64,000 nucleotides of DNA. Source: Yuukianura sp. NJ FZ-2021. Its lineage: Eukaryota. The notes beneath the pieces are model-generated. The model was not told the origin of the DNA. It was given only the letters and a program-made list of their open reading frames with translations, and did no database searches. Within the stretch, counting starts at the first letter, position 1. Each line of letters begins with the position of its first letter. Made by a program: the position numbers and the translations under genes. The stretch is taken from assembly GCA_046563655.1 (NCBI GenBank), contig CM102286.1, forward strand, positions 3,658,001 through 3,722,000, written 5' to 3'. This document shows positions 24,435 to 64,000 of this stretch, one piece after another.

Positions 24435-24613
24435 AGTTGTTCGAGTGCTTCACTGCAATTGGGCGAGCTTCTTTCGGACGTACATAACAACATAATTAAT
24501 ACTTTTTGCACAAGAGGTTAGAATCCGAGCAGTAACTATTTACGGCTTTACTGTCTAGTATGTGTGTGTGTTAATAATTGTTTTGTAATCTCAGGTCAAT
24601 TTCCTTGAAGGTC

Positions 24614-27011
24614 ATGTCTCTAAATATGGTGTTAGCGATAGCGAGGAGAGTGAGAACAGTTCGCGGATTTTCGAGGACCCACGTTGCAAATTTCAGAACA
24701 TCAGCAGTTGTGCTGGCCCATGGGTCGAGTCCTGTTTCGCCGGTTCAAGTGTACGGTTTATTTTATTCAAATTATGAAAACAATTTAATTATTGTTAGCA
24801 TTTCCATGTCTTTGTCACTTTTTTGGTGTTTTAGAAATCCAGGGGACGTGGACGGAGCAACGATTTTGGCCCAATCTTTGAGAGATCAGGTGACGGGAAT
24901 CTTAAAGAAACTTTCATTATCTTATTTTTAGTCATACTTTGACCAGTAGATTGGTCATTCGGTTTCTGTTTTTAGGGTGTTGAGTATGCCTTCGGAGTAG
25001 TCGGAATTCCCGTCATAGAAACGTCGTTTGCTCTGCAGCGGGTTGGAATTAAATACATCGGAATGCGGAATGAACAGTCAGCGTGCTACGCAGCACAAGC
25101 TTACGGATACCTCACTCGGAAACCAACTGTTTGTCTTACCGTATCTGGCCCTGGGTAACTCAATTTGTACCTCCGATTTTTCTTACAGTAACTTTGAGCG
25201 ATTAATGAGGAGTATTGTGATGCTCATGATTTTGCTTCCGTAGAATGCTCCATGCGCTTGGGGGATTAGCCAATGCACAATCCAATAGCTGGTAAGTTGA
25301 TAGGTATCATCAAATGTTCCGTACTCCATTTCGTTGAACATAAGAACTGAATTTGTTTCAGGCCTTTGATACTAATCAGTGGCTCCTGTGACAGACCATT
25401 GGAACAGCTAGGGGCCTTCCAAGAATCCAACCAAGTTGAAGCCGCTAGGAATTTTACAAAGTTCTCCGCCCGGCCGCCAACACTTGACACTATCTCTCCA
25501 TATGTAGCCAAAGCAGTAAGGATGTCTCTGTACGGTCGTCCTGGTGCAAGCTACCTAGACTTCCCCGGGGACTTGCTGGGTCAAACGACTGCAAGAGAGA
25601 AAGCACATTTTTCACCCGCTGTGCCACCACCCCCAGTAGCACTGGCTTCAGAATCCGAAATCCAACGTGCCTTAAGCTTGCTGCAAGAAGCTGAGCGACC
25701 ACTGGTAGTCATTGGCAAAGGCGCGGCTTATGGCCGTGCTGAAAAACATATCCAGGACTTCATTGCCTCTACTGGACTTCCATTTTTACCAACTGCCATG
25801 GGGAAGGGCGTAATTCCAGATGACCACTCCAACTGTGTATCTCCTGCTCGATCACTTGCTCTTCAGAAAGCCGACGTTGTACTATTACTAGGCGCTCGAC
25901 TGAACTGGATGCTTCACTTCGGTCAACCGCCTCGGTTTAGTCCAAATGTAAAAGTCATTCAGGTAATTGACGCAAATGTACAATAATAAGCTCCTGGCTA
26001 GACTGAACATGTTTACTAAACCGATTTTCTGAAAACATTTTTGGTGAAATTCCGATTCTAGGTGGATATTGAACCAGAGGAGTTCCACAGCAGCATTCCA
26101 ACGAACGTGTGTCTACTGGGTGATGTTAACGCAATCGCGGGACAGTTGGCGAAGAGCGCTGCTCAATCTCGTTGGTCATTTGCAAAGGACAAGGCTTGGT
26201 GGAGTGAGATTAATTCCAAAATTGAATCTAATCGGAAAACTGTCAGCGTGAGTTCTACACTATTTCTGCTTTTAACGTTGATTTTGGTATTACTTTGCGA
26301 GAATCCCTGTATTTTTTTTCTAACTCTAGGCAATGGCAAACGATTCGAGTGTTCCGTTGAATTACTACGCCGCTTTGTCTTGTATTCACAACAACATTCG
26401 ACATGACTCCATCATTGTAAATGAAGGTGCTAATACAATGGACATTGGCAGAACTGTTCTACTGAATCGTCAACCAAGATGTCGACTGGATGCTGGAACA
26501 TTCGGAACAATGGGAGTTGGTCTTGGATTTGCCACTGCAGCGTCCCTGTTTTGTCAAGATGAAGGTATCGGAAGGAGTGTCGTCTGCGTTCAAGGGGATT
26601 CGGCTTTTGGTTTTGGCGGTATGGAACTTGAAACTCTGTTTCGGTACAAACTTCCTGTTACTGTTGTGATAATCAATAACAATGGAATTTACGGTGGCAT
26701 GGATGGCACTGCTTGGGAGGCCGTTCGATCCGAAAAACAACATCTTGCAATTACGTGCGTTTTAACAAACAAAATTTTATGCTAAAAATCGGAGATCTTT
26801 TGTAAATTAACATTTCTGCATTTTCATTTTCTTCGTTTGCAGGACGCCGACTACATTTCTGACACCACAGACAAGGTATGAAAAGATGGCGGAAGTTTGT
26901 GGGGGGCGTGGCTTTTATTGCGAAAATTTGGAACAACTTCGTGAAGCCCTAATTGAAGCGGGAAAGGTGATTGACATTAAATACTACCATACTTTTTTTT
27001 TGAAAAGTTAA
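24614..27011 (+). pseudogene. HACL1: 2-hydroxyacyl-CoA lyase 1, copy 1; 3'-truncated duplicate lacking the last exon
   Basis: Multi-exon TPP enzyme ([61 protein letters not shown]...NNNG). Identity to copy 2 ends inside the last intron at GAAAAGTTAA (27011); reading through that intron gives TAA at 27009-27011. Confidence 0.85.
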
Positions 27012-27266: not shown

Positions 27267-28046
27267 CAGTGATGTACTGTCTTCCGGAAGATTCTTCCAT
27301 GGAAGACGTCTTCCGGCTTCATTCTTCCGACTTCCGGAAGATTTGAAGACGGAAGACTGGAAGACGAAAAATTCTCTGGAAGACGGAAGCCGGAAGATTG
27401 GAAGACGAAAAATTCTCTGGAAGACGGAAGCCGGAAGACTGGAAGACGAAAAATTCTCTGGAAGACGGAAGCCGGAAGATTGGAAGACGAAAAATTCTCT
27501 GGAAGACGGAAGCCGGAAGACCGGAAGACGAAAAGTTCTGTGGAAGACGGAAGATGGAAGACCGGAAGACAAAATATCCTCTGGAAGACGGAAGATGGAA
27601 GACCGGAAGACAAAATATTCTCTGGAAGACGGAAGAGTGGAAGACAAAACAGCCTATGGAAGTCGGAAGACTATAGGACAAAACACCCTCTGGAAGACCG
27701 GCAGACGAAAAATTCTCTGGAAGACGGAAGCCGGAAGACCGGAAGACAAAAAATTCTCTGGAAGACGGAAGCCGGAAGACCGGAAGACAAAATATTCTCT
27801 GGAAGACGGAAGCCGGAAGACCGGAAGACAAAATATTCTCTGGAAGACGGAAGCCGGAAGACCGGAAGACAAAACATCGCCTGGAAGACGGAAGATGGAA
27901 GACAAAATATCCTCTGGAAGACGGAAGATGGAAGACCGGAAGACAAAATATTCTCTGGAAGACGGAAGACGGAAGACTGGAAGACAAATCAGCTGTTTCT
28001 CTTCGGAAGACGTGAAGACTGGAAGACGGAAGACAGTACAAGACTG
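27267..28046. mobile_element. hAT-type non-autonomous element (MITE) with an internal ~41-bp GGAAGAC-rich minisatellite
   Basis: TIRs CAGTGATGTACTGTCTTCC / GGAAGACAGTACAAGACTG (2 mismatches in 19 bp). Perfect 8-bp TSD TTTATTCC at 27259-27266 and 28047-28054. Confidence 0.9.
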
Positions 28047-28127: not shown

Positions 28128-31100
28128 TCAATACTTCCAGATACTCCTCCTTCTCAAACTACAAATTACATTTGTATTTAAATGTTCTTCTTTTTCAAAT
28201 TTTGAAATGTTAGTACTAACTTTTGAAAGTGATTCAACACTCACCTCATTAACAACCCTATGATCGACAACGAGTTTTTGAAGGCGTCGGAGTTGCCCAG
28301 TTTGGCTGGCATAAATAACGCCCTTCCAGCACTCAATGCTGCAGTTGAGGAACTTCAAATGTGTCAGCACTAGTTAAAAAACAGAAACATTTGTTAATAC
28401 ACGCACTGCGACTTTAAAATTATTAATTTATCCATCAAAAATTAAAATTGTGTTTTAAAATATTATGCTTACCCGGAAAATTGCGAAAGGAGTCAACTGA
28501 TTCCGAAGTTTTGCCAGTTTCTAGGAGAGAATTGGTAATCATACTGTGTGAGATGTATTGAGCTCCATTAGTTAGGTGGTTCCAGTGTTTAAGTTGAAGG
28601 TCACGGTCCCAATCAGGTCCAGGAGTGTCGGACTCGGTATAAATGTGCAGTTTCTGGACTTTCGGAAACTGGAAAATCCCTTCTAATGTTTCAGAAACAA
28701 CGCACAATTCAGTAACGTTGGGGAGTACTAATGGCCAATGTTGACGTTCCTGCTCCGTTTTCAAATAGATTTTTGCGAATTTGACATTTGGAAAAATGCA
28801 TCCAGCGAAGATGAATTTATCGGTTGTTCCAGAATAAATGCAGTCGAGCGTCGTGAGAGCTGGGAATTCCACCGGTTGGCGCAAGATGATAGATTCGTGT
28901 GTCAAATATAACTCCAAACATGCAATGTTTGCGAGGGAACGGATAGGAAGTGTAATTGGACCAAAATCATCGGTGCTCTGACATTCCAAAAAAAGTTTGC
29001 GCAGCGATGTCAGCTTTTGAATCCAATTTGAAATAATTTCCATTGTTTGTGATGCACTTCCAGAAGTGGGATCCCGGAACTTTAAGAATAATTCCAAATC
29101 CAGGATTTTGTGTTTTGTTGAAATTGCAACAAAGTTTTCCAGCTCATCCATATTCAAAGCCGGAGACAGAAGACCCATGGCCAACTTTTGAATGAGGACG
29201 GGTCCGTTGATTCTGTAGATCTTGTCTAGGATGTTTAGAACAAAAGCATGGTATCGGTATGGTGAGTCGGACTCGTACATATTACCATCGATTGAAACGT
29301 TCCTCAGATTTGGAGCTTTCTGCAAAAGCTTCAGCAGAAGGGAATCGTCGTATTGGTCCTCAGAATCGTAGAAGACGATGTTGATGGTTTTCAGATGTTT
29401 TAGTACAGGGATTTCCATAGCTTTGGACATTTCCTGTTCCACAATTATTGGGTACTCGATTTCTTCTACATTTTCGAATCTGTCAAATAGGATTTCGATG
29501 TTCTTTAAAACTGGACTGTCGTGCGGCACTCGAGTACGGAAGAAAATCCGAATTCCCCAGGATTTCACAATACTTCCAAATTGGACACAAAACTCCTCCA
29601 ATGGATGCCCGTACGTCGATAGATATCTACTAAATCTAAACTTTTGGAACGGAACGGCCGTTTTCTTTCGTTCAAACACAGAAATAAACTTCACAATGTC
29701 CGAGTCATTCCAAAAGTTCACCTCAAACAACTTTGGTAAGCATGTCGTTGAAAGTTGATTGAACCGGTGGTTCACCAGGCGTAACTTTGGTATTTCTTGT
29801 TTTTCCAAACAACCGATTATTTGAAGCAGAATCTGAAAGAAGAGATTGTTGTTAGTAATCACATAGATTATTTATGTCAAATCAGAGTTCAAGATTCGAT
29901 TTTTTTTTATCTCCAAATCTTGTTTAGGATTTATTTGTAAACTCATCTTACATGTTGAGGCTTTGTTGGAAATTTTTATTTCGCTAGGAATACGTTATTA
30001 TGAATCTTAAAATATTATTGTTATTCAACGGAATGCAGCTCCAAAAAAAAACAGTGGCTTGAAACAAACGTTCAATTATTGGCTTTTGGCTTCAAGCTCG
30101 AAAGTTTAGTTTCGAAATTAACAAATTAGAAATCAAGTTGGCCTTACTTCATTTGGAATGGAATCCACCGTGGCAGTGCAAGACAAACGAGCGGCATCAC
30201 GAAGTGGTTCAACAAATGAACGCGATGTAGCAGACTGATTCTGTACTTCATTGTGATTACTTAACGTTCCTGGAGTAGATGGAAAACGAACCCCACTTCT
30301 TAAAGCAGAAAAACTGATCTCCACAGAGCGCACAGCTTCTTCCAGTTCTAATAAAAAAAAAAGTAATTCAGTCCGCAAAAAATCATACGGAAAATCTGGT
30401 TTTGTTGCTCACTCTTCATATGTGTTTCGTAGTTCCACGGTTTGACGACATCTAGGATGACGTTTGACTTGGCAATGGACTCAGGCTCTTTGCTCTTATT
30501 CTCTGCGCAGGCTTTGAGACGATCTTCTCGAATGTTGGCTGCCACGGCATCCTGCGAACCATTAATCACTAGGGGTCAACCATTTCCTCGCAGAAAATTG
30601 CAGTGGCACTCTCGCACTTGATCAGCTGTTGGTAAAGTGCGAGCGATCGCAGATTTTTTGAGTTCGCCTGTACCCGCCTGTACCCAACAGCCAATCAGGA
30701 GAAGTGCAATTTTCTTTTTCCAACTCAAAAATCTGCGACCCTCAGAGGCTTCTATAAATATCTCTTTCGCACTCTCGCACTCTCGCAGATTTCCAACTGC
30801 CAACTCAAACTGCGATGAAGTGCAAAGAAATGGTAGACCCCTACTATTACAGTCTCAATTCTCCAGCCAATCCTTTTACAAAAAGTATTACCTCTTCTTC
30901 ATCAGATGCAAAAAGATCAACATCTTCATCCTCATCACCAGCACCGTATTTGACAGGAGCAGCTGAAAAAGTAGCAGCACATGCTCCGGATGCCCTGAAA
31001 CTGGCTTTCAATGCTCCGAAGCTCTTGATGTGATTGTACCATCGGAGGACATGAGGATGTGAAGAATCCGGAGTGGATTTGATGCCATCAAACGTTTTGG

Positions 31101-31390: not shown

Positions 31391-32134
31391 GGGTCTGACT
31401 ATTCCTCGGAATCCTCGGAATTTTTTTTGAATTCCTCGGAATTTCTTCCCTATGACTTCCCCAGCATTTCCCCGGCTGGGCAACTCGAAATGTTGACTTC
31501 AGGTTGACCTGCGTACATTTTCAAAATTCCAAAGGCCTACGAATTCTTATTTTTCATTTCCCCACACTTCCCCAGCATTTCCCCGGCTGGGGAAGTGACA
31601 GGGAAGAAATTCCGAGGAATTCGAAAAACTCGAAATGTTGACTTCGGGTTGACCTGCGTACATTTTCAAAATTCCAAAGGCCTACGAATTCTTATTTTTC
31701 CTTTCCCCACACTTCCCTAGCACCTTCCCGGCTGGGGAAGTAACGGGGAAGAAATTCCGAGGAATTCGAAAAACTCGAAATGTTGACCTCGGGGTGACCT
31801 GCGCACTTTTTCAAAATTCCAAAGGCCTACGAATTCTTATTTTTCATTTCCCCACACTTCCCCAGCATTTCCCCAGCTGGGGAAGTGATAGGGAAGAAAT
31901 TCCGAGGAATTCGAAAAACTCGAAATGTTGACCCGAGGATTCCTGAGGAATTTTTCAAAATTCCAAAGGCCTACGAATTCTTATTTTTCATTTCCCCACA
32001 CTTCCCCAGCATTTCCCCAGCTGGGGAAGTGATAGGGAAGAAATTCCGAGGAATTCGAAAAAAGAATTCCGAGGATTCCGAGGAATTCAAAAAAATTCCG
32101 AGGATTATGAGGATTCCGAGGAATAGTCAGACCC
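31391..32134. mobile_element. MITE-like TIR element with about four internal 145-bp tandem units
   Basis: Perfect 26-bp TIR GGGTCTGACTATTCCTCGGAATCCTC / GAGGATTCCGAGGAATAGTCAGACCC. Motif AACTCGAAATGTTGAC recurs at 31482, 31627, 31772 and 31917. No TSD seen. Confidence 0.85.
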
Positions 32135-32219
32135 ACTATTTACGGATGTACTGTCTAGGCTGTCTGTGTGTGTTAATTAGTAATTGTTTTGTTATCTTAG
32201 GTCAATTTCCTTGAAGGTC

Positions 32220-34774
32220 ATGTGCATGTCTTTTAACAAGGTTTTAGCGATAGCGAGGAAAGCAAGTACAATTCGCGGATTTTCGAGGAACCACGTCGCA
32301 AATTTCAGAACATCAGCTTCAGCAGTTGTGCTGGCCCATGGGTCGAGTCCTGTTTCGCCGGTTCAAGTGTACGGTTTTTATTTTATTCAAATTATGAAAA
32401 CAATTTAATTATTGTTAGCATTTCCATGTTTTTGTCACTTTTTTGGTGTTTTAGAAATCCAGGGGACGTGGACGGAGCAACGATTTTGGCCCAGTCTTTG
32501 AGAGATCAGGTGACTGGAATCTTGAATAAAGAAACTTTCAGAATCTTATTGTTAGTTATGCTTTAACCAGTAGATTGGTAATTCGGTTCATATTTTATCA
32601 GGGCGTTGAGTATGCATTCGGAGTAGTCGGAATTCCCGTCATAGAAACTTCGTTTGCTCTGCAGAGGGTTGGGATTAAGTACATTGGAATGCGGAATGAA
32701 CAGTCAGCATGCTACGCAGCACAAGCTTACGGATACCTCACTCGGAAACCCACTGTCTGTCTTACCGTTTCTGGCCCTGGGTAACTCAATTTGCACCTCC
32801 GATTTTTCTTGTAGTAACCTTGAGCGATTAATGATGAGTATTGTGATGCTCATGATTTTGATTTTCCTTCCGTAGAATACTCCATGCGCTTGGGGGATTA
32901 GCCAATGCACAATCCAATAGCTGGTAAGTTGGTATGTGCCGCCACATGTTCAGTACTCCATTTCGTTGAACATAACAAAGAGCTGGATCTGTTTCAGGCC
33001 TTTGATAGTAATCAGTGGCTCCTGTGACAGACCATTGGAGCAACTCGGGGCCTTCCAAGAATCCAACCAAGTTGAAGCCGCTAGGAACTTTACAAAGTTC
33101 TCCGCCCGGCCGCCAACGCTCGACACTATCTCTCCATATGTAGCCAAAGCAGTAAGGATGTCTCTGTACGGTCGTCCTGGTGCAAGCTACCTCGATTTTC
33201 CCGGGGACTTGCTGGGCCAAACGACTCCAAAAGAGAAAGCACATTTTTCACCCGCTGTGCCACCACCGCCAGTAGCACTGGCTCCAGAATCCGAAATCGA
33301 ACGTGCCTTAAACTTGCTGCAAGAAGCTGAGCGACCACTGGTAGTCATTGGCAAAGGGGCGGCTTATGGCCGTGCTGAGAAACATATCCAGGACTTCATT
33401 ACCTCTACTGGACTTCCATTTTTACCAACTGCCATGGGGAAGGGCGTAATTCCAGATGACCACTCCAACTGTGTATCTCCTGCTCGATCACTTGCTCTTC
33501 AGAAAGCCGACGTTGTACTATTACTAGGCGCTCGACTGAACTGGATGCTTCACTTCGGTCAACCGCCTCGGTTTAGTCCAAATGTAAAAGTCATTCAGGT
33601 AATTGACGCAAATGTACAATAATAAGCTCCTGGCTAGACTGAACATGTTTACTAAACCGATTTTCTGAAAACATTTTTGGTGAAATCCCGATTCTAGGTG
33701 GATATTGAACCAGAGGAGTTCCACAGCAGCATTCCAACGAATGTGTGTCTACTGGGTGATGTTAACGCAATCGCGGGACAGTTGGCGAAGAGCGCTGCTC
33801 AATCTCGTTGGTCATTTGCAAAGGACAAGGCTTGGTGGAGTGAGATTAATTCCAAAATTGAATCTAATCGGAAAACTGTCAGCGTGAGTTCTACACAATT
33901 TCTGCTTTTAACGTTGATTTTGGTATTACTTTGCGAGATTCCCTGCATTTTTTTTTCTAATTCTAGGCAATGGCAAACGATTCGAGTGTTCCGTTGAATT
34001 ACTACGCCGCTTTAGCATGTATTCATAACAACATTCGACATGACTCCATCATTGTAAATGAAGGTGCTAATACAATGGACATTGGCAGAACTGTTCTACT
34101 GAATCGTCAACCAAGATGTCGACTGGATGCTGGAACATTCGGAACAATGGGAGTTGGTCTTGGATTTGCCACTGCAGCGTCCCTGTTTTGTCAAGATGAA
34201 GGTATCGGAAGGAGTGTCGTCTGCGTTCAAGGGGATTCGGCTTTTGGTTTTGGCGGTATGGAACTTGAAACTCTGTTTCGGTACAAACTTCCTGTTACTG
34301 TTGTGATAATCAATAACAATGGAATTTACGGTGGCATGGATGGCACTGCTTGGGAGGCCGTTCGATCCGAAAAACAACATCTTGCAATTACGTGCGTTTT
34401 AACAAACAAAATTTTATGCTAAAAATCGGAGATCTTTTGTAAATTAACATTTCTGCATTTTCATTTTCTTCGTTTGCAGGACGCCGACTACATTTCTGAC
34501 ACCACAGACAAGGTATGAAAAGATGGCGGAAGTTTGTGGGGGGCGTGGCTTTTATTGCGAAAATTTGGAACAACTTCGTGAAGCCCTAATTGAAGCGAGA
34601 AAGGTGATTGACATTAAATACTACCATACTTTTTTTTTTTGAAAAGTTAATGGATCGATCACGGTGTCTGTTTTATGAATTCAGGAAACCGACAAACCAA
34701 CTGTTTTGAATGTGATGATCAGTCCATCGGCTCAAAGGAAGCAACAAGACTTCTCTTGGCTAACGCGTTCTTAA
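32220..34774 (+). CDS. HACL1: 2-hydroxyacyl-CoA lyase 1, copy 2 (complete)
   Basis: Same exon structure as copy 1 plus the terminal exon 34685-34774 ([29 protein letters not shown]), which matches the HACL1 C-terminus. Confidence 0.92.
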
Positions 34775-44705: not shown

Positions 44706-47509
44706 TTAAATAAGAAGCACGTCTAGTGATTGATTCTCTGAAATGTTTTCAAAATGTTTCTGTGATACTGGTAACTTTGAATTTTGAATTTTGAGAGGTA
44801 CAATGGCTGCCTTCCAAGTTCCCCTGGAATTAAATTTCTCAGTTTTTGGAATTGTGTCAACTTCCAGATTTGTAGAATTCGTGCTAAGATTTGCCACTTC
44901 TTCCACCTTAACTGTTTGTGTATTGTACTTTCGCAGCATAATTTCCACAAGCATGCAACAGACTGTGATGGCAATACAAACTATGTAGACAAAAAATACA
45001 ATTCCAGTAGTAGTTTTCATACTAAGACGATTGACTAAACTGATGGTTATGTTTCGGCTGTTCATGTGGACTCTTCTAATGGCAGCACACTTTTGTACGG
45101 CGTTCTGGTAGACGTATACGCCAGATTCTGTGAACGCATGCGCAGGTTTTTGGAAAATACTTTTCAGAAAGTTGACAAAATGAATGTTATATCCAAGTAG
45201 ATACGCAGGAACGAGTTTCGAAATCTCTGAATCTTGCAATTTATATATCCCTTTATACGTCTCGGGATCCAACTTTGCGCGCAGAAGTAAAAGGTCAATG
45301 ACCTCCGTTGGCCGAATGTATGCAGTAGAACTGCACTGAAGTACAATATTCATAGATGCGCTTTTGTCAACAATTCCAGATACGCAGCTCGGCGGATGCA
45401 AGAATTTCACGAGTCTGAGCAAATTTGCTTCAGTTTGAGTTGATTCCGATTCAAACGCTTGACATTCCGCGATATTTTGAATGCTATTATTAACTGCGTG
45501 CAAAGTTTTTAAAAACTTAAGCTTCCTGAGCTTGCTGAACATTCCAAGCGCAATAAACGGAAAATCATAACTGTCGTAGCTTGTCGAATGAATCACAACG
45601 TCGTTCCGGCAGTCCGAGGCATTTGACGAACAACATTCCTTAAGTATTTCAAAAGATCTTGGTGTTGGTTCATAGTAAAACGAAAAATTGTTTCCGATTG
45701 CCCCAGCCACGGTAACCTGTCCCACCATGGCGAATGGCTTGATAATATCTGTAGTAACGAATCCTTTGTAAGTATTTGTGAGCACTAGAGCCATGACAAG
45801 AAATGAACCAAACCCAATTTGAAACCAGGCGCGAGACCTAAGTTTGCCTGAAATTCGTAGACAATGCTCCAAAAGGTAAGAAACCAAAAGGAGAATCATA
45901 GAGTCCGATTTGTCGTTTAGCAAAATAATGTCCAGCATTACAGCAAGTGGAAAAACAGTACAAAATAACAAAATCCAAACGGTCGATGTAAAGGGCTCAA
46001 CGTATTTCGGCAAACCTAGTTTTCGTACGAGTCCATCACAAGTTATAGCAGAGTGTGTTTGACTTCGGATCGGTACAAATATTTGTTCAGAATCTGCCAC
46101 ATAGCCTTTGTTCAGTGCGTTGTACTTGATACGTAATATAAACTTCGGTTTTCGTCCGCGAGGTTTTGAGTTCACTTCAACGCGACTGCGATTGAAGGCT
46201 TTCATAAGGAATTCGGCCAGCACAAGACAAATCGTCTCCTCCGTTGAGGATTCAGGAATACTCAAAAATCCAAGCAAATGTACATGCTGTTTGAATTGAC
46301 GTTCAAAGTTTGAGTTTAAAAACTCCTTAGAAAAACCTGAGAGCCAGAAATGATACATAAATGAGAACATGACTTTTTAATTAGCTTAAATTTTTAGCAA
46401 TTTTTTAGCTTAAATTTTGGAAACTTAATTTTTTTTTATTAGCTCCTTTACCTGTTGTTGCGTCAATCTTCAGCTGGATCCGAGGAATGATGCCGGTTTC
46501 AGGATTACTTAATTCATAATAGACCCTATGCGTAACGAGCGTTTGTTCATGTGCGGACTGAGTTGTTGACGTTTGTTTTACCATGTACATTATGATTGGA
46601 ATTACATCAAAGAAGCTGTTCTTCCGTGCGACCGAAACCATCCATGGGCCTGGAGTCCAAAAAAAGAATTCTCAATGACCTGATGAAATTTGCAGCTTGA
46701 CATTGTAAATGCGGTTGAAGTAAACTTGGATCCCCTGCCTGTCCTCACCCGTTCAAACTTTTGCGCAGCTATATTGTACCCACCAATTGTCCCCACCATG
46801 TGGATACAGTTGTTCCCACCACAACCAAAAACAGTACTATAATGGAGGCAGCACAGGGTGGGTACAGTGGAGGCAGCGCAAAAATTTGAACGGGTGGTGA
46901 CAGGCGGGGGATCCAAGTTTACTTCGACCGTATTTGCAATTTGAAAAACATGAAATGTTTAATTTACGTCCAAGCTGACCACTTACTCCATTTGTGAAAA
47001 TCCGTAATGATAGCAGAAATAAAAATTCTAGACGGAAACAGAACCATGCTCAAGGCTTCGACTTCAAGATGAGCATATTTGACACGTTTGTCTTTATACC
47101 TAGTATTGCTCCAACGAGTTCTCAGGAAAAGGTGAGCGTCATTTATGTGGTTCGGTTCAGTGGTACCTAGCAAGTATATGGATACACATCGCAAATGTTT
47201 TTGAAGGAAATTGGTTTGAACCATATCACATACACCTTCTTTTGTCGAGTTTATAGTACCAGTTAATCTTGGATTTGGTTTACAAGATGGCGGAATGTCT
47301 TTGTAAATGTAAGTTGTGTTGGAAACAGCTACTGGGTAAGTGGCAGAAATAAAGTTGAGTACCTGAGGCTGATAGGATATGAGTTGGTTGTAACAACCTT
47401 CGGAGTGACCCAGAAAGAAATCCAGGTTCAAAAAAGCAGAATTGGCGAGTATTGGCAATAACAAGAAAACCAAACCTGCAAACTGAACGCAAGAATATGT
47501 TTGGATCAT
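44706..47509 (-). CDS. Divergent ionotropic receptor (IR)-like chemoreceptor, 3 exons
   Basis: Signal peptide. Exons at about 47509-46987, 46650-46452 and 46372-44706 join in phase. iGluR/IR-like landmarks: PFTSTVW (M1), LLEH, LVLTNTYKGFVTT (M2), FTESGVY, and a C-terminal M3 ending LVEI. Confidence 0.7.
46712..46930. mobile_element. Short palindromic MITE in intron 1 of the IR-like gene
   Basis: Imperfect ~55-bp TIRs CGGT(T/C)GAAGTAAACTTGGATCCCC...TTTTGCGC. TA on the right flank and TG on the left. Confidence 0.75.
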
Positions 47510-53762: not shown

Positions 53763-54327
53763 GTGCAAATAAAATTTCAGTTTGAATGTGCGCCAAAATT
53801 GGAAGTTAGGTTTGAATCTGAAATGTAAAATTTAAATTCACTGCTTAGATATAATTTGAACAAATAAACGCTTCATCTAGCGTTAGATAAAAGATAAATT
53901 ATGTTAAATTCGTTTACACAAAAACTTTGAAGAGAGCGAGTAGTAAAAATTGATTTGCATTTGAGATCGTAGGCCTAATTTATGTGTTTTAAGCCTTCTT
54001 TCTTTTACTGAGAAACATAATAGACTGAGAAAGGATGAACTAATTAAAAATGAAACAACGTAAAGCCAAAAGCTATAATTTTATGGCATTAATTGGCGAG
54101 CGTTGCAAAATGTTATTTTCAGCAGGACGGGTTTCACAAGAATTTGATTTCTGCTTTTTTTGTGGCTAGGATTATGAAAGAACCTGCTATTTTGTTCTCG
54201 TTTTACTGGACTCAATGGATGCTTTTTAGTATTTATCAGTATAAGTGGTTTCAATACTCATTTAACGCACTTGTCTGGAGAAGTGAAATACTTACAAAGT
54301 ATTTTTTGACTCTTTTTGGTTAACAAA

Positions 54328-56434
54328 ATGGCGACCATTACACTGGCGGAAACCAAAGTAGTCCAGGAGGTAAACTTTCAAATCTTGTTACCGAGTCGGT
54401 AGTTATATTTTGAAAGTTAGTTTGCATAAAACTATGGTTTCAGCTATTTTGATTTATTTTAAAGTTTCGAGCGAAAGTAAAAGACCTAAACTTAGAAAAT
54501 GCGCCGGACACATACATGTTAAGGTGGCTTCGTGGTAAGGATAAGAGTAACGTTCATAGCATTATAGTTGACTACCTAAACTAATATTTTGTTTCTCGTT
54601 TAAGTTCGGGGCATGAATGTTACTGCAGCGGAAGAAATGCTCAGAAAGGTAGACAAACGGCAATACTACAAATATTAAATAATACTTTGTATTATAAATA
54701 TCACCATTAAGAGTATTACATCTAGTTTATTTCTAATGTTTACAGCACGTACAATGGCGAAAGGATGAGGATTTGGAACACATTCTAGATTGGGTACCTC
54801 CTCCAACCTTTAGCGAAGACTACAAATACTATATTTCGGGACCCGACAGTGATGGAAATCCTAGTAAGATTACGCATATCATATTAAATGTTGGTACAGC
54901 ATTATGGTAATTTGGTTTTATGATCCGGTACGCATCACGTTTTGTCCTTGTAGGCCTAGGCCTAGTGGCATATCCCGCTGAAAAAGCTAACGTCATCTTT
55001 CTCGTTTTTTTTTGAAAATTTAGTACTGATTCTCCCCTTTGGAACTTGGGACAATCGGAAAACTTTGAAAAGCAACAGACATGGAATGCGAGCGGCGTAT
55101 CTCAGACACTATGATCAAATATTTTCAAAAGCTTGTGCAAAAAAGGAAGGGTTCTCAACCGAACTTGGACGCGAAATAACGCAATTCACATTTATTGTGG
55201 ACTATGAACATCTTTCCATGGGCCAACTAGCGTCACCTACTTGTTTGTTTTTTGCATTAAAATTTTGATGAAATTTCTACTGGGCGTCTCCTTACAGTGC
55301 TATTCTGTTGTTTTCTAAGGTGTCGGTGCATACATAGAAACGCTCAAACGGTTTGAAGCCCACTACCCAGACTGTTTGTCCCAGTTTTACTTCATAAATG
55401 GTATGTACGCCAAGAAGCTATTCCTATTTTTGGGTGAATATAATGTTTGTAACTCATGTTTTAGCAAACCGAGCTTTCCAAATTTTGTTTGCCGCGCTTA
55501 AACCATTCTTTTCTACTGGGACACTTGGGAAATTAGAAATTTACGGGAGTCCAGATAAATGGATTCCAGTTCTCACGTCACGCTTTCCCGGAGGTCAGCT
55601 TCCTCTGAAATACCGCGAATTGCAAAAAGTGGGTCAAAAACACACTTTAAAACTCATTTCCAAAACTAGCTGAAAATTATGTACCCGTTCTGTGTTTGAA
55701 CAGACTTCTAAAGGAAACTGTGCACCAGAATCCATGGATGAAAATGAAATGGCGTGCCTTCAAGTAGCGGCTGGAGAAACTTGTAAACACGAATTTAGTG
55801 TGAAAAAAGCAAATAGCACGTTGAGGTAAAACTAGATATCCTGATAAAAAAAAGAATTTTCGCAGTTGGTTAAACGTACAACATTTCAACACGTAAAGTG
55901 TTGTGTATGGGAATCACCTCATAGGTTCAAAAGAAGAATTGCTTCTAAAAGCATTCATTCTAAGGTGTTAAAAAACATGTTTTTTAGGAGTAATTTTTAG
56001 AAACTTTTTTATAGAAGCAATTTACTTAAACAATGGCATTGATCACCAATCACGAAATGAATACTAACTTATGAAAAGTAGGGAAATAGCGTCAAAAGTT
56101 GGTTTACAAAATACAGTACCAAGCTTCTGTTTTCTTATTGGTCAGATGGTTGTTTCGAACTGAGGCGAACGACATTGCATTTGCTGTGTTTTTCGGAAAA
56201 GATGAACTTGTTAGGAACAAACGATATGAAGCAAGTCAAATTCCGACCAAGGGATCTCTAGTCTGCCATAATACGGGAGATTGTATGTTTTTTTTAATTT
56301 AACAGTACTCGTTTAAGTTTATTGAAATAGCATTGTTTTCTGTTTTTTTAGATGTACTCCACTTTGATAACAGTTACAGTCGACTGAACGGGAAAACGGT
56401 ATTCTACAATGTGGAGGTCACCGAACCGGAGTGA
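54328..56434 (+). CDS. SEC14-like protein (CRAL-TRIO + GOLD), tandem copy A
   Basis: YMLRWLR, WRKDEDLEHIL, FEAHYPD, and GOLD exons WLFRTEANDIAF and LHFDNSYSRL. Confidence 0.88.
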
Positions 56435-57057
56435 ACTTTCTTTAAATTTTATATCAATCTGTATGATAAAATACAGTAACAAAAATGAAAATTCATCCTT
56501 CAATTATTCATTTAATAAATGCAATTCATTTACACACTAATTTTGTTTTTCCGAAACCGTGAACTGTAACTCGTTTTGGATATTTCTACATATTGAGATC
56601 TAGTATTTAATTGGATTGAGATTTCTTTTTCAAAATGGATCATTCTCTTCCAACAATTTTGTGATAACTGGATGACCTTGTCAAGCTACGAATTTTCTTA
56701 TAATTTGATAGTTACTTAGAAACGACGAGGAAAATGTTGTATATTCGTCTTGGTTAACTGACAGTTTTTGGAACAAAAACTTACTTTTGTGGTTATAATC
56801 TTTATGCTGTTGTTTGACGAGGCTAAAGAGGAGGCTAAAGTTAACAAATGTTTTGTTGGGCAAGACGTGGTTGCAATAATGCTCTGTTGCTTGTTGTAGC
56901 GAGGATTATGTAAAAACTAGTTTACGTTCCTGTTTTACTGGAATGGATGCTCCCTTCTACAATTTTTAACATATACTAAACAATTCACACAGCAGTAAAT
57001 CACCAGCCTAGAAAATAGCACAATATTCCACAATTGCGAAGCTTGGGTTAACCCAAA

Positions 57058-58434
57058 ATGGTCACCGCTACACAAACAGAACTGAAAATTCTAAAGGAGG
57101 TGAGAATTTTGTATTTTTAATTCGTTTTGTCCAATTTGTGTTCCTCAAATTTTAGAAATTGCCTTCTAATATTGCATGCTAATAGGGTAACTTCTATATA
57201 ACTTCTTTTCTAAATTCACAGTTTCGAATGAAAGTAATGGACTTAAACCTAGAAAATGCAACGGACTTGTTCATGATGCGTTGGCTTCGTGGTACGTATT
57301 AGAGTCGAATGTACAACATGATCCTCTGTATATGTATAAAGTTATGTTTACACTAATTACCTGATTTTAAAAATTCATGAATTATATTATAACTAAAGCA
57401 TATTTTTCGAACGCATAAGCTCGGGACATGAATATTACTGCAGCGGAAGAAATGTTAAGAAAGGTTAGACGTTGATTTTTGTATTTCTAATTCTATGTAA
57501 CTTCTTTACGTGTGTCATTATTATATCTAAGTAGTAATTATAAATGTGCAACTATGAAATGTTTCCAGCACTTGCAATGGCGAAAAGATGAGGATATGGA
57601 CCATATTCTAGAATGGGTTCCTCCTCCAAATTTTAACGAAGACTACCCTTATACCATTTCAGGACCCGACAACGATGGACATCCTAGTAAGCATATAACG
57701 TAGGATATTACAATAACTATTGGTAAATTCAGTTAGCAACGCATTTTGTTTCGTAGTATTTCTTTCTTTCTCTTTTTTGTTTTTCAAAAATTCAGTTCTG
57801 ATTCACCCTTTTGGAAAATGGGACGTACGCAAAATATTCAAAAACGACAAAACGGCCTTACGGGCAGCTTGGCTTAGATACACGGAGCAATCATTTGAAA
57901 GAATTATTGCAAAAATGCAAGAGGTGTCTTTGGCACTTGAACGTGAAGTCACCGAATATACATTCATTGTCGACTTCGCAGATCTCTCCATGCGCCAACT
58001 AGCGTCACCCTCATGTTTGTCTTTGGAAAAATATATTATTATCGTAAAAATATTTTACCATGTTTTTACCTGATAATGTCATTTCTATTTATTCTAAGGT
58101 GTCGGTGCGTTGTTAGAATTTTCCAGGCGATTCGAAGCCCATTACTCAGATATAGTGTTTCAAGTATACTTCTTAAATGGTATATGTAATACATTGCATC
58201 GGACGTGACAAATAACGGCGATTTTGGAAAGAGTTTAACTTATGATTTATTCCAGTAAACCGAGCCTTCCAAGTCCTTTTTGCCATGATTAAACCATTTC
58301 TTTCTGCAAGCACAATTGGGAAAATAGAAATTTATGCGACCCCAGAAAAATGGCTCCCAGTTCTTACCTCACGCTTTCCCGGAGATCAACTTCCCGTGGA
58401 ATATCGAGGAGTCCAAAAAGTCAGTACCCCTTAA
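57058..58434 (+). CDS. SEC14-like protein, tandem copy B, lacking GOLD exons (truncated or pseudogene)
   Basis: Exon-by-exon paralogy with copy A through PGDQLPVEYRGVQK. No GOLD exons occur before the next gene, and read-through gives TAA at 58432-58434. Confidence 0.75.
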
Positions 58435-60117
58435 AATACTATAATTAAAATACCTTTAAAACTTATTCAAATAAGAACTACCAATGATCGCGATGTAAAG
58501 TTTGTATAATCATTCTATAAATATTTTTTTGAATCGAACTAAAAAAAAATAATTGTTTAGGTCTTGCATTAAAAACAAGAATTCTTCAAATATTCAATTA
58601 TTGAGTTGTCTTAACCGTTTATAACATGCACTGTCCGAAACTCTGAAAAATTCAAATTGCCTTTATCAACCGTTCTGAATCCAATGCTATGAGGAAAACT
58701 AGTAACTATTCAGTTTCATGCGAATTCATTTTTTCAGAAAATTTTTTCTCGATGGGAACATGTCGAAATAATCTACGTGGACTGGATGACCTCGTGAGAC
58801 GCGAATTTATTGCCTCCGTTTTTTTTCTATTTGTTGTTCTTGGAAACAACAAAGGAAACTAGTTCCTGATAAGTATAGAACTTTATGAACTTCAGCAGAA
58901 TTTTAGCTGTTAGTAGTTTATTATCAACATCAGTTCAAATTAGTCAAATCTTAAGCAGTGTAAAGACAAAGAGTGGCAAGATCGAGCAAAATGGCAGCAC
59001 CTACTAAGGCGGAGCTGGAAGTCGTCAAGAAGGTAAATTTAATGATAAAAGCATTTGGCAAATCTTTTTTGAAAACGTTCCAACACCTCTAGCATTTTTC
59101 TTGTGTAAAATTGTTGTTGTATTCAGTTTCGGGCGAAAGTAAGTGACCTGGGACTTGACAAGGCCACTGACTTGTACATGTTGCGATGGTTGCGAGGTCA
59201 GTTTCTTTTCGTAAAAGTTATATTTTGTCATAATGTTTTGTAAAATTTCTAGAATTCCGAAAGTTTTTTGTTTTGTAACAGCACGGGACTTGAGTATACC
59301 TGCATCGGAAGATTTACTAAGAAAAGTAACCTTCTCAGCCTTAATTTGTTTTTGGGATTACAGATAATTTGCTTTACTTAACTGTTTATGTGTAGCACTT
59401 GCAATGGAGGAAGGAAGAAGATTTAGACAAAATCTTAGAGTGGGTTCCCCCAGAAAATTTTATGAAAGACTACACCTATCAAATTACCGGAAGCGACAAC
59501 GAAGGACATCCAAGTAATTTATATATAATTTGCAGGATACTGCGGCTTTAAACGCTCGAATTTTCCCCAATTTTAGTTCTTATAATTCCCTTTGGCGAAT
59601 GGGATGTGCGCAAAATCATGACTTCTGGAAAACCAGGAATGAGAGAAGCATGGTTGAGACACATTGACCAAATTTTTGCAAAACTTTTCGAAAGAATGGA
59701 AGAGATGACCGTGAAATATGGACACGAGGTCACCCAGTGTGTTTTCATTGTCGACTTTGCAGGTTTTTCCATGCGCCAACTCACCTCGTTTGCAAGTTTG
59801 TGAAAACCAACATTCCTAGAGATATTTAAGAATTTTTTCGAATAAATGTGCTTATGCTTATATCGTAACATTTTTTTTATAGATGTCAGCACCATTTTGG
59901 AAGCCGTGAAACGATTTGAGGCTAACTACCCTGAAATATTATTTCAATTCTACTTCATAAATGGTTAGTAAAGTTTTAAAACTTGACGAAAACATTCAAA
60001 ATAAGAATGTATTGTATAAACTTTTTGATCACCTTTAGCATTCCGTGTTTTTCAAATGTTTTTCGCATTGATGAAACCACTTCTGTCTCCAAGGACGGTT
60101 GGTAAACTGGAAATATA

Positions 60118-61074
60118 CTACTGGGTCTCCCCAGACCGACGAAAAAAAAATGAGATTGTGCAGCTTTTCCATTTTGATGCACCAAAAAAAAACAGGTTTC
60201 TTTGGCGATGTACAATTTTTTAAGGCCACTTCCCACACCTTTTTTTTGCGCGTTTCAGAATAAATAGGGTCGAAGGAAAAATGGATAATTGCAACGAAAT
60301 TGTAACACTAATTGTTTGTGTAATGAACAAATGTGGCTGGGACGGTTCCTCATGCATTGAGAAGAAGACTATCTCTGAGATAGTCGGAAACAACGTAATT
60401 ATTTACAAAGATAACGACGAAGTACTGTCAAAATCCGAGTTGGTGTATTCCGTGTTGAGTAAGTCATATAAAACGTTGTTGATAGTTAAGCTTCATTCCT
60501 TCATTTTTCAACCTAATGACGTCATACTTTTGCTTACAGTTTTCCTAGTTGCTCTTATCTTGTACGCCTGTGTACGTCGGCTGGCATGTTGGCTTTGCTG
60601 CAGCAGGGGTTAGTCAATTGTTTTCAGAAATCAATTACAAAAGGATTAATTTTAGTTTTTATTGTTAAGCTTTGCTTCCGACGACAATTACGACAAGCCG
60701 GCAGCGTCAGCCACCGACATTTCCAGCATTACCTCCTGCTGTACGTTATCCTGCTCTTCCACCTAATCTGCCATCAATTCCGATCACCATTCCTCCTCTT
60801 AATCGTACCCCCCCTCCTCCAGCATTCCTCAAGCCGGATTTAGAATTCGATACTGGAACTACTGGAAGGAATAATTCTTACTCGCTTGTAAATTTTCTCA
60901 AACAACTGTTCTCAGTCACGGTTAGGAAATGTAAGTGTAATCCGGCCTTAGCATAAATATTTTTTCGGTAGATTTTGTGAAACTCGGGGTGATTTTGGAA
61001 AAGTTGTTTGTTTTTTGGTTGAAACGCGATGCACAATCTCATTTTTTTTTCGTCCGTCTGGGGAGACCCAGTAG
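60118..61074. mobile_element. Non-autonomous TA-target (Tc1/mariner-class) TIR element carrying a cargo gene
   Basis: 45-bp TIRs CTACTGGGTCTCCCCAGAC(C/G)GACGAAAAAAAAATGAGATTGTGCA with 1 mismatch. TA TSD at 60116-60117 and 61075-61076. Confidence 0.92.
60281..60956 (+). CDS. Passenger gene inside the TIR element: predicted 177-aa single-pass membrane protein with a Cys-rich juxtamembrane region and Pro-rich tail
   Basis: Exons 60281-60458, 60540-60608 and 60670-60956 with GTAAGT/CAG and GTTAGT/AAG junctions, both phase 1, giving a 534-nt open frame. Confidence 0.6.
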
Positions 61075-62386
61075 TACACGTCACCGGATAAATGGCTTCC
61101 TGTGTTAACGTCGCGTCTTCCAAAAAACCAACTTCCAAAGGAACTTGGAGGAATGCAACCAGGCCGACGTGTAAACTTCAGATTGTTCATGCTTTAAAAT
61201 TTGATTTATTTTTTTTCCTCTATAATTTATAAGAAACTATTTATAACTGTACGGACAGGTTTCTACTGGAAGTGCACTCACATTGGACACCGCGCACTTG
61301 GATGAAGGTGAAATGGCGACTGTCGAAATTTCAGCAGGAGAAATTTGTAAATTAGACTTCCCTGTGGTAACGCCTAAAAGTATTTTGAGGTATTTTTTCA
61401 AGATCGAATTACTTTTTTTATTATCCAAAATAATAACTTATATTTTATTTTATGTGTAAGCTGGAACTTTAAGCTTGAGGCTCACGACATAGGATTTTCA
61501 GTACGGTTGGGAGAAACCGAACTTATTGAGGCGAAACGGTATGACGCTAGCGGTGGACTAGTTACAGGGACGCTCACCTGTGATATCGCAGGAGACTGTA
61601 GGCAAAAATCAAAACTACAAATTTCAAAACAATTTCAACAACACATCTCTGTTAAATTCAAAAGTGATTCCTGTTAAACTCAAGAAATTTGTTTTTAGAC
61701 ATGCTGAACTTTGATAACAGCTACAGCCGGATGAGAGGAAAAACTGTTTTCTACACTGCGGAGGTAATTGAACCGGAAATGAATGAAAAATCAGGCTAAC
61801 TAAAAATGTACCAGTTTTCATGGAGTGCAACACAAAATAAACATTTTTAACCATATTTGGTGTAAAAATTATTTGAATTCAAATCGACTACTCAACACTT
61901 TGTATACGTAACATTTCTTTTGTTACTACAGTTAGTAGGTTTAAGATGGTTTCTTAACCTGTCTCTCTCGCTGTAAAATAAATAAACTTATATTTGACGC
62001 AGTAATTATAATTTTTTCAAAGGTTCATCCAATTAAGAAAGTTAATTAAGAACCATTGTTAGCAACTTTAATAGCAAAAATGTGGACTGTAATTAAGATG
62101 GGTGTTCTTAAGATTATCGGAACTGGTATTCAATTATATGTGATTTTGTTTTTAATTGGAATGCGAAACGTTTTGAAGCAGTTGTATTTAGTTTGGATGA
62201 CCTTGCCCGACCTATTTTTTTAATTTTGCTCGTGGAAACAGCGAAACTAGTTTCTTTTACAATGGAACTAATCGAAACCAAGTTGGATAACCCTGCAGCA
62301 TTATCTTATAAATATCACTTGCACGTATCGCTTGGCCAATTTGAAACTCGCTGAAAAGCAAAACCAAACAGTGAGAGTACTGCAAA

Positions 62387-64000
62387 ATGGCAGACCCTAC
62401 TCCGGCAGAGCTCAAAGTCCTGGAGCAGGTAAACTTTTATAAAATTGCTTGAAGTTGTTATGAACATTTTTCTTTTGTTTTAATTTATTTTATACAAAAA
62501 ATTTGCTTCCTTAGTTTCGGGAGAAAGTGAGTGATCTGGGACTTGAAAATGCATCTGATCTGTACATGCTGCGCTGGTTGCGAGGTGATTTTCTATAAAC
62601 ACTTTTCAGTCACACATTTTTCAAAAAAATTTTTTTTCTATTTTGTTTTGTTCTCACTAACAGCACGAGACTTGAGTATACCCGAATCCGAAGATTTGCT
62701 CAGAAAGGTGGAGTTTTCTTAATTTTTTAAATTTTAAACTAATACATAGTTTTGTTTAAGAGTTTCTAATGAATTTGTTTATGATTAGCACTTACAATGG
62801 AGAAAGGCAGAAGATGTGGACAACATTTTAGAATGGGTTCCCCCTGAAAATTTTTACGAAGATTATAGGTTTCAAATCACAGGAAGTGACAATGAGGGAC
62901 GCCCAAGTAATATTACATTTTTTTATTTTTTACGTCATTAAATTTTTTCAAAAGCTCAAAAACTTACCAAAATTTCAGTCCTTGTTATGGAATTTGGTAA
63001 ATGGGATGTGCGCAAAATCCTGACTTCTGGAAAACCAGGAATGAGGGAAGCATGGTTGAGATACATTGACCTAATGTTTGCAAAAGTTTTCGTAAAAATG
63101 GAAGAGATGTCGTCGAAATGTGGACATGAGGTGACCCAGTGTATTATCATTGTGGACTATGCAGAATTTTCCATGCGCCAACTGTCCTCATTTGCAAGTT
63201 TGTAGTCATAATACTTTATTTTAAAAAAAAATCTTAAATTTTATAATTTTCTTTGAAAATAGGATTTAATGAAGTTTAAAGCTGTGCATCTGCTTCCATA
63301 CTAATTTTTTTCTTCCAGATGTTAGCGCATTTATGGAATGTGCAAAGCGGTTTGAATCCAACTACCCTGAGATATTATATACATTCTACTTTATAAATTG
63401 TGTGTGTAAAATTTAAACCATGCCTGAAAGAAATCCAATGGTTGGAATATATTGTAGAAAATAATTTTTTTTGAAAATACTTTGTTTAGCATTCCGTGTG
63501 GTCCAAGTTTTTGTTTCATTGGTAAAACCGCTTCTGGCAGCAAGAACGGTTGGTAAAATTGAAGTGTACACAACACCAGACAAATGGCTTCCAGTGCTTA
63601 CATCGCGTCTTCCAAAAGATCAGCTTCCATTGGAACTTGGAGGCACGCAAACTGGACAGAACGTAAATTTAAAATTTTTCAACAAAATAAAAACTTTAAT
63701 CTCTATTCTGTTTCCATCCTTTCTTAAAAAATTGTATGCTTTGTATAGGTTTCTACTGAAAAATCAACGAAATTACACACTGCGCAAACGAATGAAGACA
63801 AAATGTCATCAGTCAAAATTTCGGCGGGAGAAATTCATAAATTAGAAATCCCTGTGCCAAAGCCTAAAAGCATACTGAGGTAACATAATTGTACTTGCTC
63901 GGTTCGGAAACTCATTTTTTTTAGTTTCATTGAAATTGAAGTTTGTATGTTTATATTATATTTTGTTTCGTCAGTTGGGCATTTCAACCGGAAGCTCACA
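62387..64000 (+). CDS. SEC14-like protein (CRAL-TRIO + GOLD), tandem copy D, partial at the window end
   Basis: YMLRWLR, FESNYPEIL, RLPKDQLPLELGG and the start of the GOLD exons. Runs off the right edge. Confidence 0.88.

Follow-up and report, generated by a model that had tools for sequence, protein, structure and literature searches.

A recently mobile TA-target transposon with a gene-like interior splits a CRAL-TRIO coding exon in Yuukianura sp. NJ FZ-2021

Introduction

That cut-and-paste transposons can take up gene DNA is well documented for plants and scarcely so for animals. In plants, the Pack-TYPE elements (Pack-MULE and Pack-CACTA) are non-autonomous elements that enclose intron-bearing gene DNA between terminal inverted repeats (TIRs) and are moved in trans, as described in the literature (PMC6379663, PMC8903248, PMC6431247). 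One of these accounts calls it exceptionally rare for a full-length gene, and not just a fragment, to be taken up (PMC6431247). Among animals, the Caenorhabditis elegans DNA transposon Turmoil-1 has taken up protein-coding fragments from rsp-2 and cpg-3 in its inverted terminal repeats, and the same report described capture of gene DNA by cut-and-paste transposons as unknown in animals in 2008 (PMC2572040). Here, we describe a 957-bp element at positions 60118-61074 of a 64,000-nt stretch from Yuukianura sp. NJ FZ-2021 (GenBank assembly GCA_046563655.1, contig CM102286.1, positions 3,658,001 to 3,722,000, forward strand). We refer to this whole stretch as the window, and all coordinates are positions within it. 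The element is a recently mobile TIR transposon that has inserted into a coding exon of a CRAL-TRIO gene, and its interior holds a candidate three-exon open reading frame (ORF) rather than a transposase. An earlier note, made from the letters of the window, had presented it as a young transposon spreading an intact gene.

Similar to the Pack-TYPE elements, the element is mobile and non-autonomous and possesses TIRs and a target site duplication (TSD). Pack-TYPE elements belong to plants, are members of the Mutator and CACTA superfamilies and have identified parental genes, whereas our element resides in an animal, targets TA and has no parental gene that we could find. It resembles Turmoil-1 in being an animal DNA transposon with putative coding DNA. 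The fragments of Turmoil-1 lie in its terminal repeats and have known sources; in contrast, the candidate gene described here occupies the interior, and no source is known for it.

The element also invites comparison with non-autonomous Tc1/mariner elements. It shares with them the TA duplication, the TIRs, the absence of a transposase, a length of about 1 kb, the presence of several copies, internal deletions flanked by microhomology and a polymorphic insertion. Unlike those elements, it has an intron-bearing ORF as its interior with no recognisable remnant of a transposase, its ends are not of the CAGT type, and no autonomous partner was identified. CAGT-type or YAGG-type ends are typical of many Tc1/mariner elements and are not universal in the superfamily. 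MITEs (miniature inverted-repeat transposable elements) are usually shorter than about 800 bp, lack coding capacity and reach high copy numbers. The size of 957 bp, the 177-codon spliceable frame, the existence of shorter deletion forms and the several copies inferred from other flanks all bear on a placement among MITEs.

Results and Discussion

Structure of the element

The element is bounded by two inverted arms of 47 nt (60116-60162 and 61030-61076), which include the flanking TA, are 98% complementary with one mismatch and lie 867 nt apart. Within these arms are TIRs of 45 bp, the left at 60118-60162 (plus strand) and the right at 61030-61074 (minus strand), which differ from one another at a single position. 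A 24-nt core of the TIR occurs at two places in the window, which are the two ends of the element; two or more matches were found in none of 100 shuffles. Past the arms, the left and right ends resemble each other loosely. The left TIR has a 5+5 hairpin near its tip that is weak when folded (z -1.59). Subterminal regions separate the TIRs from the candidate ORF on the 5′ side (60163-60280), where an A/T-rich, TATA-like stretch lies about 20 nt upstream of the ATG, and on the 3′ side (60957-61029).

A TA flanks the element on both sides. The left copy (60116-60117) was recognized by direct reading, from the inverted arms and from the joint of the empty site described below, and the right copy (61075-61076) by direct reading and from the same joint. 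The empty site is shorter than the filled one by exactly 957+2 nt. A 3-bp TAC duplication would also fit the three ambiguous letters at that joint; this was rejected because it would make the termini asymmetric. The termini read CTACTGGG..., so that the terminal nucleotides are of neither the CAGT nor the YAGG type. The earlier description of a young TIR element with one mismatch in 45 and an intact TA duplication is confirmed by the inverted arms and the empty site, and its remark that transposase features are absent agrees with our Pfam searches, in which no exon of the element matched a transposase family. An Rfam scan of 22000-64000 returned no family, and a 19-nt core of the TIR was found at no locus in a metagenome scan. 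In a literature string search, an exact 13-nt piece of the TIR matched one unrelated mouse paper.

Recent mobility

A search for public runs listed five DNA runs, from two samples and two studies, and no RNA run. Contigs from four of the DNA runs (X1 to X4) were placed on positions 58500-62500. The exact empty site, in which 60115 is joined to 61075 with a skip of 959 nt, was present in three of the four runs (X1, X3 and X4; two samples, two studies), and three letters at the joint fit both sides. The empty-site contigs (1565 nt at a depth of 200.6 in X1, depth 214.4 in X3, and 1574 nt at a depth of 6.08 in X4) extend 145-1424 nt into both flanks. Across the flanks, between 0.9% (X1) and about 2.5% (X4) of positions differ from the window. 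Other haplotypes thus carry the empty site with an intact exon, and the TA duplication is real.

Further copies are present at other insertion sites, as the element ends at 60115 and 61076 run into different flanks in X1 and X2. Summed contig depth is several-fold higher over the element than over its flanks, a figure that does not represent a copy number. In X4, the listed element pieces showed no differences from the window over 593 nt, whereas a flanking contig differed at 39 of 1573 nt. Because element pieces are identical while flanks differ, the copies must be younger than the divergence of the haplotypes. One bin in X4 (60510-60643) is nearly without cover (0.24), and nothing was concluded from that part.

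Deletion derivatives of the element were also seen among the contigs. In one relative, 60404 is joined to 60714, with 309 nt gone and both sides identical to the window in X4. In a second, found in X1, X2 and X4, 60452 is joined to 60740 with a loss of 287 nt and a 3-nt microhomology. In a third, the 162 nt between 60257 and 60420 (60258-60419) have been swapped for 80 other letters. Such internal deletions are typical of abortive gap repair in cut-and-paste elements. We conclude that the element is a real, recently mobile, multi-copy, non-autonomous TIR transposon with a TA target. Most simply, it would be a cut-and-paste DNA transposon of the Tc1/mariner-IS630 type. As it lacks a transposase, its movement would presumably depend on an unseen autonomous partner that acts in trans and recognizes the same TIRs.

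Interruption of a CRAL-TRIO gene

A CRAL-TRIO (SEC14-like), lipid-transfer-type gene carries the insertion point in one of its coding exons, a location that the earlier note had missed. The left half of the interrupted exon (60035-60115, plus strand) matches Pfam CRAL_TRIO profile positions 106-128 and the right half (61077-61170, plus strand) matches positions 130-153; the matches are carried by ORFs at 60029..60223 and 61075..61197, respectively. Each half alone scores below the PF00650 cut-off. The corresponding exon of a paralogue (63465-63845) reaches 24.6 bits against the cut-off of 22.6 bits, so that a PF00650 domain is found to span the insertion point, and a further exon matches at an E value of 0.0011. 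Removal of 959 nt (the element plus one TA) places the two halves in a single frame. In the window paralogues, the homologous exon is uninterrupted (ORFs 55398..55673 and 63465..63845).

At least four tandem units of the CRAL-TRIO type were recognized by tblastx, at approximately 54189-56431, 56642-58422, 58977-61778 and 62373-63881. The insertion is in the third (58977-61778, plus strand), which was delimited by comparison with the first and the fourth. The remaining exons of this third unit are open and show 52-81% protein identity to the paralogues. The second unit (about 56642-58422) has no match to the C-terminal exons common to the other units and may be truncated.

With the element present, the host frame enters it for about 35 codons and ends at a stop at 60224. 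The ORF of the element and the host gene lie on the same strand. Two ways in which splicing could rescue the host mRNA were judged by hand from the sequence, and both were rejected. A GTAAAC 18 nt before the insertion paired with an AG at the element end would remove 977 nt and break the frame, and splicing from a GT in the left TIR to a CAG in the right TIR would restore the frame and leave an in-frame TAG. Probably, the window copy has turned a redundant CRAL-TRIO paralogue into a null allele. The copy is a recent insertion in sense orientation, segregating against the empty site of other haplotypes and truncating one paralogue, and it is probably tolerated through redundancy. The solid result of our study is that the family is active and that this insertion segregates and disrupts, in one of its coding exons, a CRAL-TRIO gene present in tandem copies. 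For annotation, gene models at 58977-61778 are best built with the 959 nt removed.

The candidate ORF

As the earlier note had proposed, the interior contains a three-exon frame that runs from ATG to stop with two introns. The frame lies on the plus strand and has 177 codons, and both introns are of phase 1. Candidate exon 1 (60281-60458) comprises 59 codons and one nucleotide. It is followed by intron 1 (60459-60539; 81 nt, GTAAGT..ACAG, GC 0.32), exon 2 (60540-60608; 69 nt), intron 2 (60609-60669; 61 nt, GTTAGT..TAAG, GC 0.21) and exon 3 (60670-60956), which ends in a stop codon at 60954-60956. Over part of exon 3, two further frames are open as well. Intron 1 is itself open in frame over 27 codons. 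A third GTAAGT, at 60931 inside exon 3, is in phase 1 of the cargo frame and hints that the frame once ran on into another intron.

The predicted product agrees with the transmembrane helix and Pro-rich tail noticed earlier. A hydrophobic window of 19 residues begins at residue 53 (Kyte-Doolittle mean 2.46) and crosses the junction of exons 1 and 2; most of this putative helix is encoded by exon 2, together with a basic/Cys cluster. Exon 3 encodes the tail, and 19 of the last 95 residues are Pro. Cys residues are at positions 4, 13, 18, 25, 70, 76, 79, 80, 170 and 172. An AlphaFold2 single-sequence model of exon 1 had a predicted local distance difference test (pLDDT) score of 52.4, which is too low to use and does not count against a working gene. 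A Shisa-type adaptor, which has a Cys-rich N-terminus, one helix and a Pro-rich tail, was considered as a candidate and rejected, as no Pfam match was obtained; this check, which covered the single exons and the read-through, is weak.

Origin of the interior

What is the interior of the element? The explanation that we favor, and hold to be moderately probable, is that it consists of gene-derived but unselected filler in a Pack-type-like element. It would be a gene segment with real introns that was taken up as DNA, in the manner of the Pack-type elements of plants; the retention of introns points to uptake at the DNA level. In the window copy, the segment would still be readable as a single frame of 177 codons, encoding a membrane-type protein with one pass and a Pro-rich tail, although presumably without a current function.

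Several features give the interior the look of a gene. The inter-exon gaps of the host gene measure 51-88 nt, and the two cargo introns fall within this range; the GTTAGT donor of intron 2 is also used by the host gene, at 59963. Exon GC contents are 0.38, 0.52 and 0.46 against 0.32 and 0.21 for the introns. To score codon usage, a table was built from 14 host exons that are Pfam-supported or very long, and all 14 of these control exons score best in frame. For exon 1, the log-likelihood ratio in frame is 0.149 bits per codon, compared with -0.65 and -0.36 out of frame. Higher scores were reached by 3.2% of 6858 open frames that came from shuffling the whole element, and by 1.2% of 2000 shuffled versions of exon 1 that were free of stops. 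The 22 codons of exon 2 give no clear signal of codon usage.

Exon 1 also bears a short resemblance to the Notch/LIN-12 LNR module. When it was compared with the PDB by phmmer, all seven rows at E values up to 5 were Notch regulatory regions, the best with an E of 0.077. Residues 13-25 fall on the end of LNR repeats with the pattern C-x4-C-x-W-D-G-x2-C. A trimmed 29-residue piece matched PF00066 with an E of 0.048 and 14.5 bits, these residues fitting positions 23-35 of the 36 in the profile. The spacing occurs once, in exon 1, among the 127,996 residues of the six-frame translation of the window, and its chance per protein is 7e-8 before allowing for the number of noticeable motifs. An LNR module has six Cys; the likeness covers at most a third of one module, lies below the cut-off, is joined by no further Notch features and could not fold as an LNR. 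We read the match as a hint that exon 1 may descend from real coding DNA, with no domain assignment attached. A 110-residue read-through of the cargo gave weak Notch/presenilin rows only (E 0.37-0.88) in the same type of search. The gene-like appearance reported earlier is thus upheld by the strong donors, the host-like intron sizes, the GC contrast and the codon usage of exon 1, but the proposed capture gained no parental gene.

A number of observations weigh against the explanation that we favor. Neither a transposase (Pfam, exons of the element) nor an autonomous partner (the TIR occurs only twice in the window) was seen, which leaves the TA duplication as the sole basis of the superfamily assignment, and the terminal bases CTAC... 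are unlike CAGT-type ends. No contig among those listed bridges the filled site, so that the insertion allele is documented by the window alone. Neither a parental gene nor another copy of the cargo was found elsewhere in the window, and protein and metagenome searches yielded no homologue of the cargo; as a result, its origin by capture is unproven. The LNR score of 14.5 bits, over 13 of 36 positions, falls short of the 21.2-bit cut-off, the match appeared only after post hoc trimming of the query, and the full 59-residue exon 1 gave no LNR match against Pfam. Exon 3 has a codon-usage score of -0.094, which was exceeded by 87% of null ORFs and by 5.3% of those with its own composition, and it is C/T-rich and open in two frames over 60669-60843. 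Finally, when any GT..AG introns of 40-150 nt were allowed, 12.7% of 150 shuffles contained a frame that could be spliced to run from ATG to stop over at least 537 nt.

The homology searches covered the cargo in several forms. A read-through of exon 1, intron 1 and exon 2 had no homologue among proteins of 60-193 residues in a word-indexed search, and exon 3 had none at near or at longer lengths. Likewise, exon 3 matched nothing in the PDB by phmmer. Back-translated exon 1 gave 392 pattern matches in metagenomes, none of which was confirmed. An exhaustive search of representative proteins returned a single match, P0001 (E 7.9e-07, 21 stretches). P0001 is a translated tandem repeat of 55 residues that aligns only to the read-through of intron 1, and it was rejected as a repeat-inflated chance match; a link between transposon and satellite is also conceivable. 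A non-transposon parental gene was sought in the window and in the protein and metagenome searches and was not found.

An alternative, which we regard as possible but doubtful, is that the ORF is a working mobile gene. A promoter carried by the element would drive its expression, the product would be a small membrane protein with a single pass and a Pro-rich tail in the cytoplasm, and the element would spread or maintain the gene; the broken copies would be the ordinary decay products of a transposon family. The intact frame with its consensus donors and phase-compatible introns is consistent with this, as is the host-like codon usage of exon 1. Contig pieces identical to the window were found over most of the ORF in X2 (records 8, 9 and 11) and X3 (records 17 and 18). 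Two substitutions are listed in the ORF, one synonymous and the other Ile-to-Val. A further relative is at least 85% alike only at 60350-60410, 60663-60707 and from 60972 on. The first of these stretches is inside exon 1 and the second comprises the last 7 nt of intron 2 and the start of exon 3, so that the likeness is exon-centered, though fragmentary. This relative has a GTAAGT 20 nt into its loose end past 60707.

The indels of the relatives can be read in both directions. Four of them are multiples of three: -3 at 60366, -6 at 60799 and -3 at 60806 in a diverged deleted relative, and a 12-nt insertion at 60808 in X3. However, the diverged relative also has -7 at 60370, +1 at 60764 and the 287-nt deletion, and in other relatives the ATG region or 309 nt of the frame is missing. 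In total, the frame is lost or shifted in at least three relatives among the contigs. A further difference affects 60869-60872: GGAA is doubled there in the window, and in each of the four runs the contig piece of highest depth departs from it. This 4-nt change in exon 3 alters the last 29 or so codons; if it is a plain absence of four letters, the product would have 154 residues, 148 of them shared with the window frame. Also speaking against a working gene are the absence of any homologue in the protein, PDB and metagenome searches, an LNR-like piece that lacks three of the six Cys and cannot fold, and a TATA-like stretch that is as close as about 20 nt to the ATG. The earlier claim of an intact working gene spread by the element is therefore not sustained, in view of the broken relatives, the 4-nt variant and the missing homologue. 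That note had itself named random frameshifts in other copies and the lack of a homologue as grounds for abandoning its view. Both have come true in part, the first in at least three relatives and the second in the protein searches.

A bolder form of the same idea is an animal TA-target TIR element that serves as the vehicle of a complete, intron-containing, non-transposase gene, kept open in full-length master copies and spread among close relatives, with a membrane adaptor-like product that is in part a remnant of a Notch-type LNR. The spread among close relatives is suggested by element pieces identical to the window in a second labelled organism. It would constitute a whole-gene cassette of Pack type in Metazoa. 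We consider this scenario unlikely. If it were true, with the ORF both expressed and conserved, it would amount to compact, currently mobile gene transport of about 1 kb by a TA-target element in an animal.

Could the frame instead have arisen by chance? The interior would then be MITE-like non-coding filler, with the ORF, the introns and the LNR pattern coincidental on a C/T-rich, stop-poor strand. The plus-strand frames are open over 129, 107 and 95 codons, against at most 64 codons on the minus strand, and this openness of the plus strand is partly due to composition. When the element was subjected to 5000 dinucleotide shuffles, 280 of them (5.6%) had a single open frame that reached 129 codons or more, which, together with the loosely spliced frames mentioned above, speaks for a chance origin. 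The lack of a convincing coding signal in exons 2 and 3, the lack of homologues and the broken relatives would also be expected. In contrast, two frames of at least 129 and at least 95 codons on one strand occurred jointly in only 30 of the 5000 shuffles (0.6%). When donors had to be GTNAGT and acceptors pyrimidine-rich, with the sites placed where needed, 1 of 600 shuffles gave a spliceable frame of at least 537 nt, a figure that flatters the ORF because these strict rules were modelled post hoc on the observed sites. The codon usage of exon 1 (p 0.012-0.032), the contrast in GC between exons and introns, and the LNR pattern, with its uncorrected per-protein chance, also argue against coincidence. 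Overall, the repeat structure is far beyond chance and the ORF moderately so, and we judge a chance frame to be improbable.

Least plausible of all is a deletion derivative of a longer autonomous element, its exons being fused remnants of the ends of its own transposase or of an accessory gene: internal deletions are frequent in the family, relatives with other, longer interiors are revealed at 60350 and 60663 by loose ends of 221-255 nt, and the GTAAGT at 60931 suggests that the frame once entered a further intron, but no exon matches a transposase family, the N-terminal exon is acidic to neutral with a Cys pattern whereas Tc1/mariner transposases start with a basic helix-turn-helix, and a hydrophobic helix with a Pro-rich tail is not a transposase feature.

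Other features of the window

The first 22934 nt of the window are a satellite with a 59-bp unit (388.7 copies, 99% match, constant GC of 0.255). Genes with short introns follow it, encoding a cytochrome b561, a duplicated thiamine pyrophosphate (TPP) enzyme, an integrin beta, an Ig/FN3 muscle-type protein and the CRAL-TRIO proteins. The TPP-dependent enzyme gene (TPP_enzyme_M, TPP_enzyme_C) and an upstream ORF form a near-identical duplication at 24500-26800 and 32200-34450, within which the ORFs 26330..26785 and 33967..34422 are identical in nearly every letter.

Three further repeats were observed. A 41-nt tandem repeat at 27345-27988 is rich in GGAAGAC, has about 15 units in two blocks and leaves several frames open on both strands. 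A unit at 31391-32134 is bounded by inverted repeats with nested arms of 25-44 nt (92-96% complementary) and encloses four copies of a partly palindromic 145-bp tandem repeat, which gives it a foldback or MITE-like look. At 46697-46945 is a hairpin-like unit of 249 bp with 73-nt arms that are 86% complementary and 103 nt apart. It adjoins one of two long single-exon ORFs on the minus strand, that of 556 codons at 44706-46376; the other, of 478 codons, is at 28435-29871. No Pfam family above threshold was found for either, and the 478-codon ORF has a weak match to LRR_14 only (E 4e-4).

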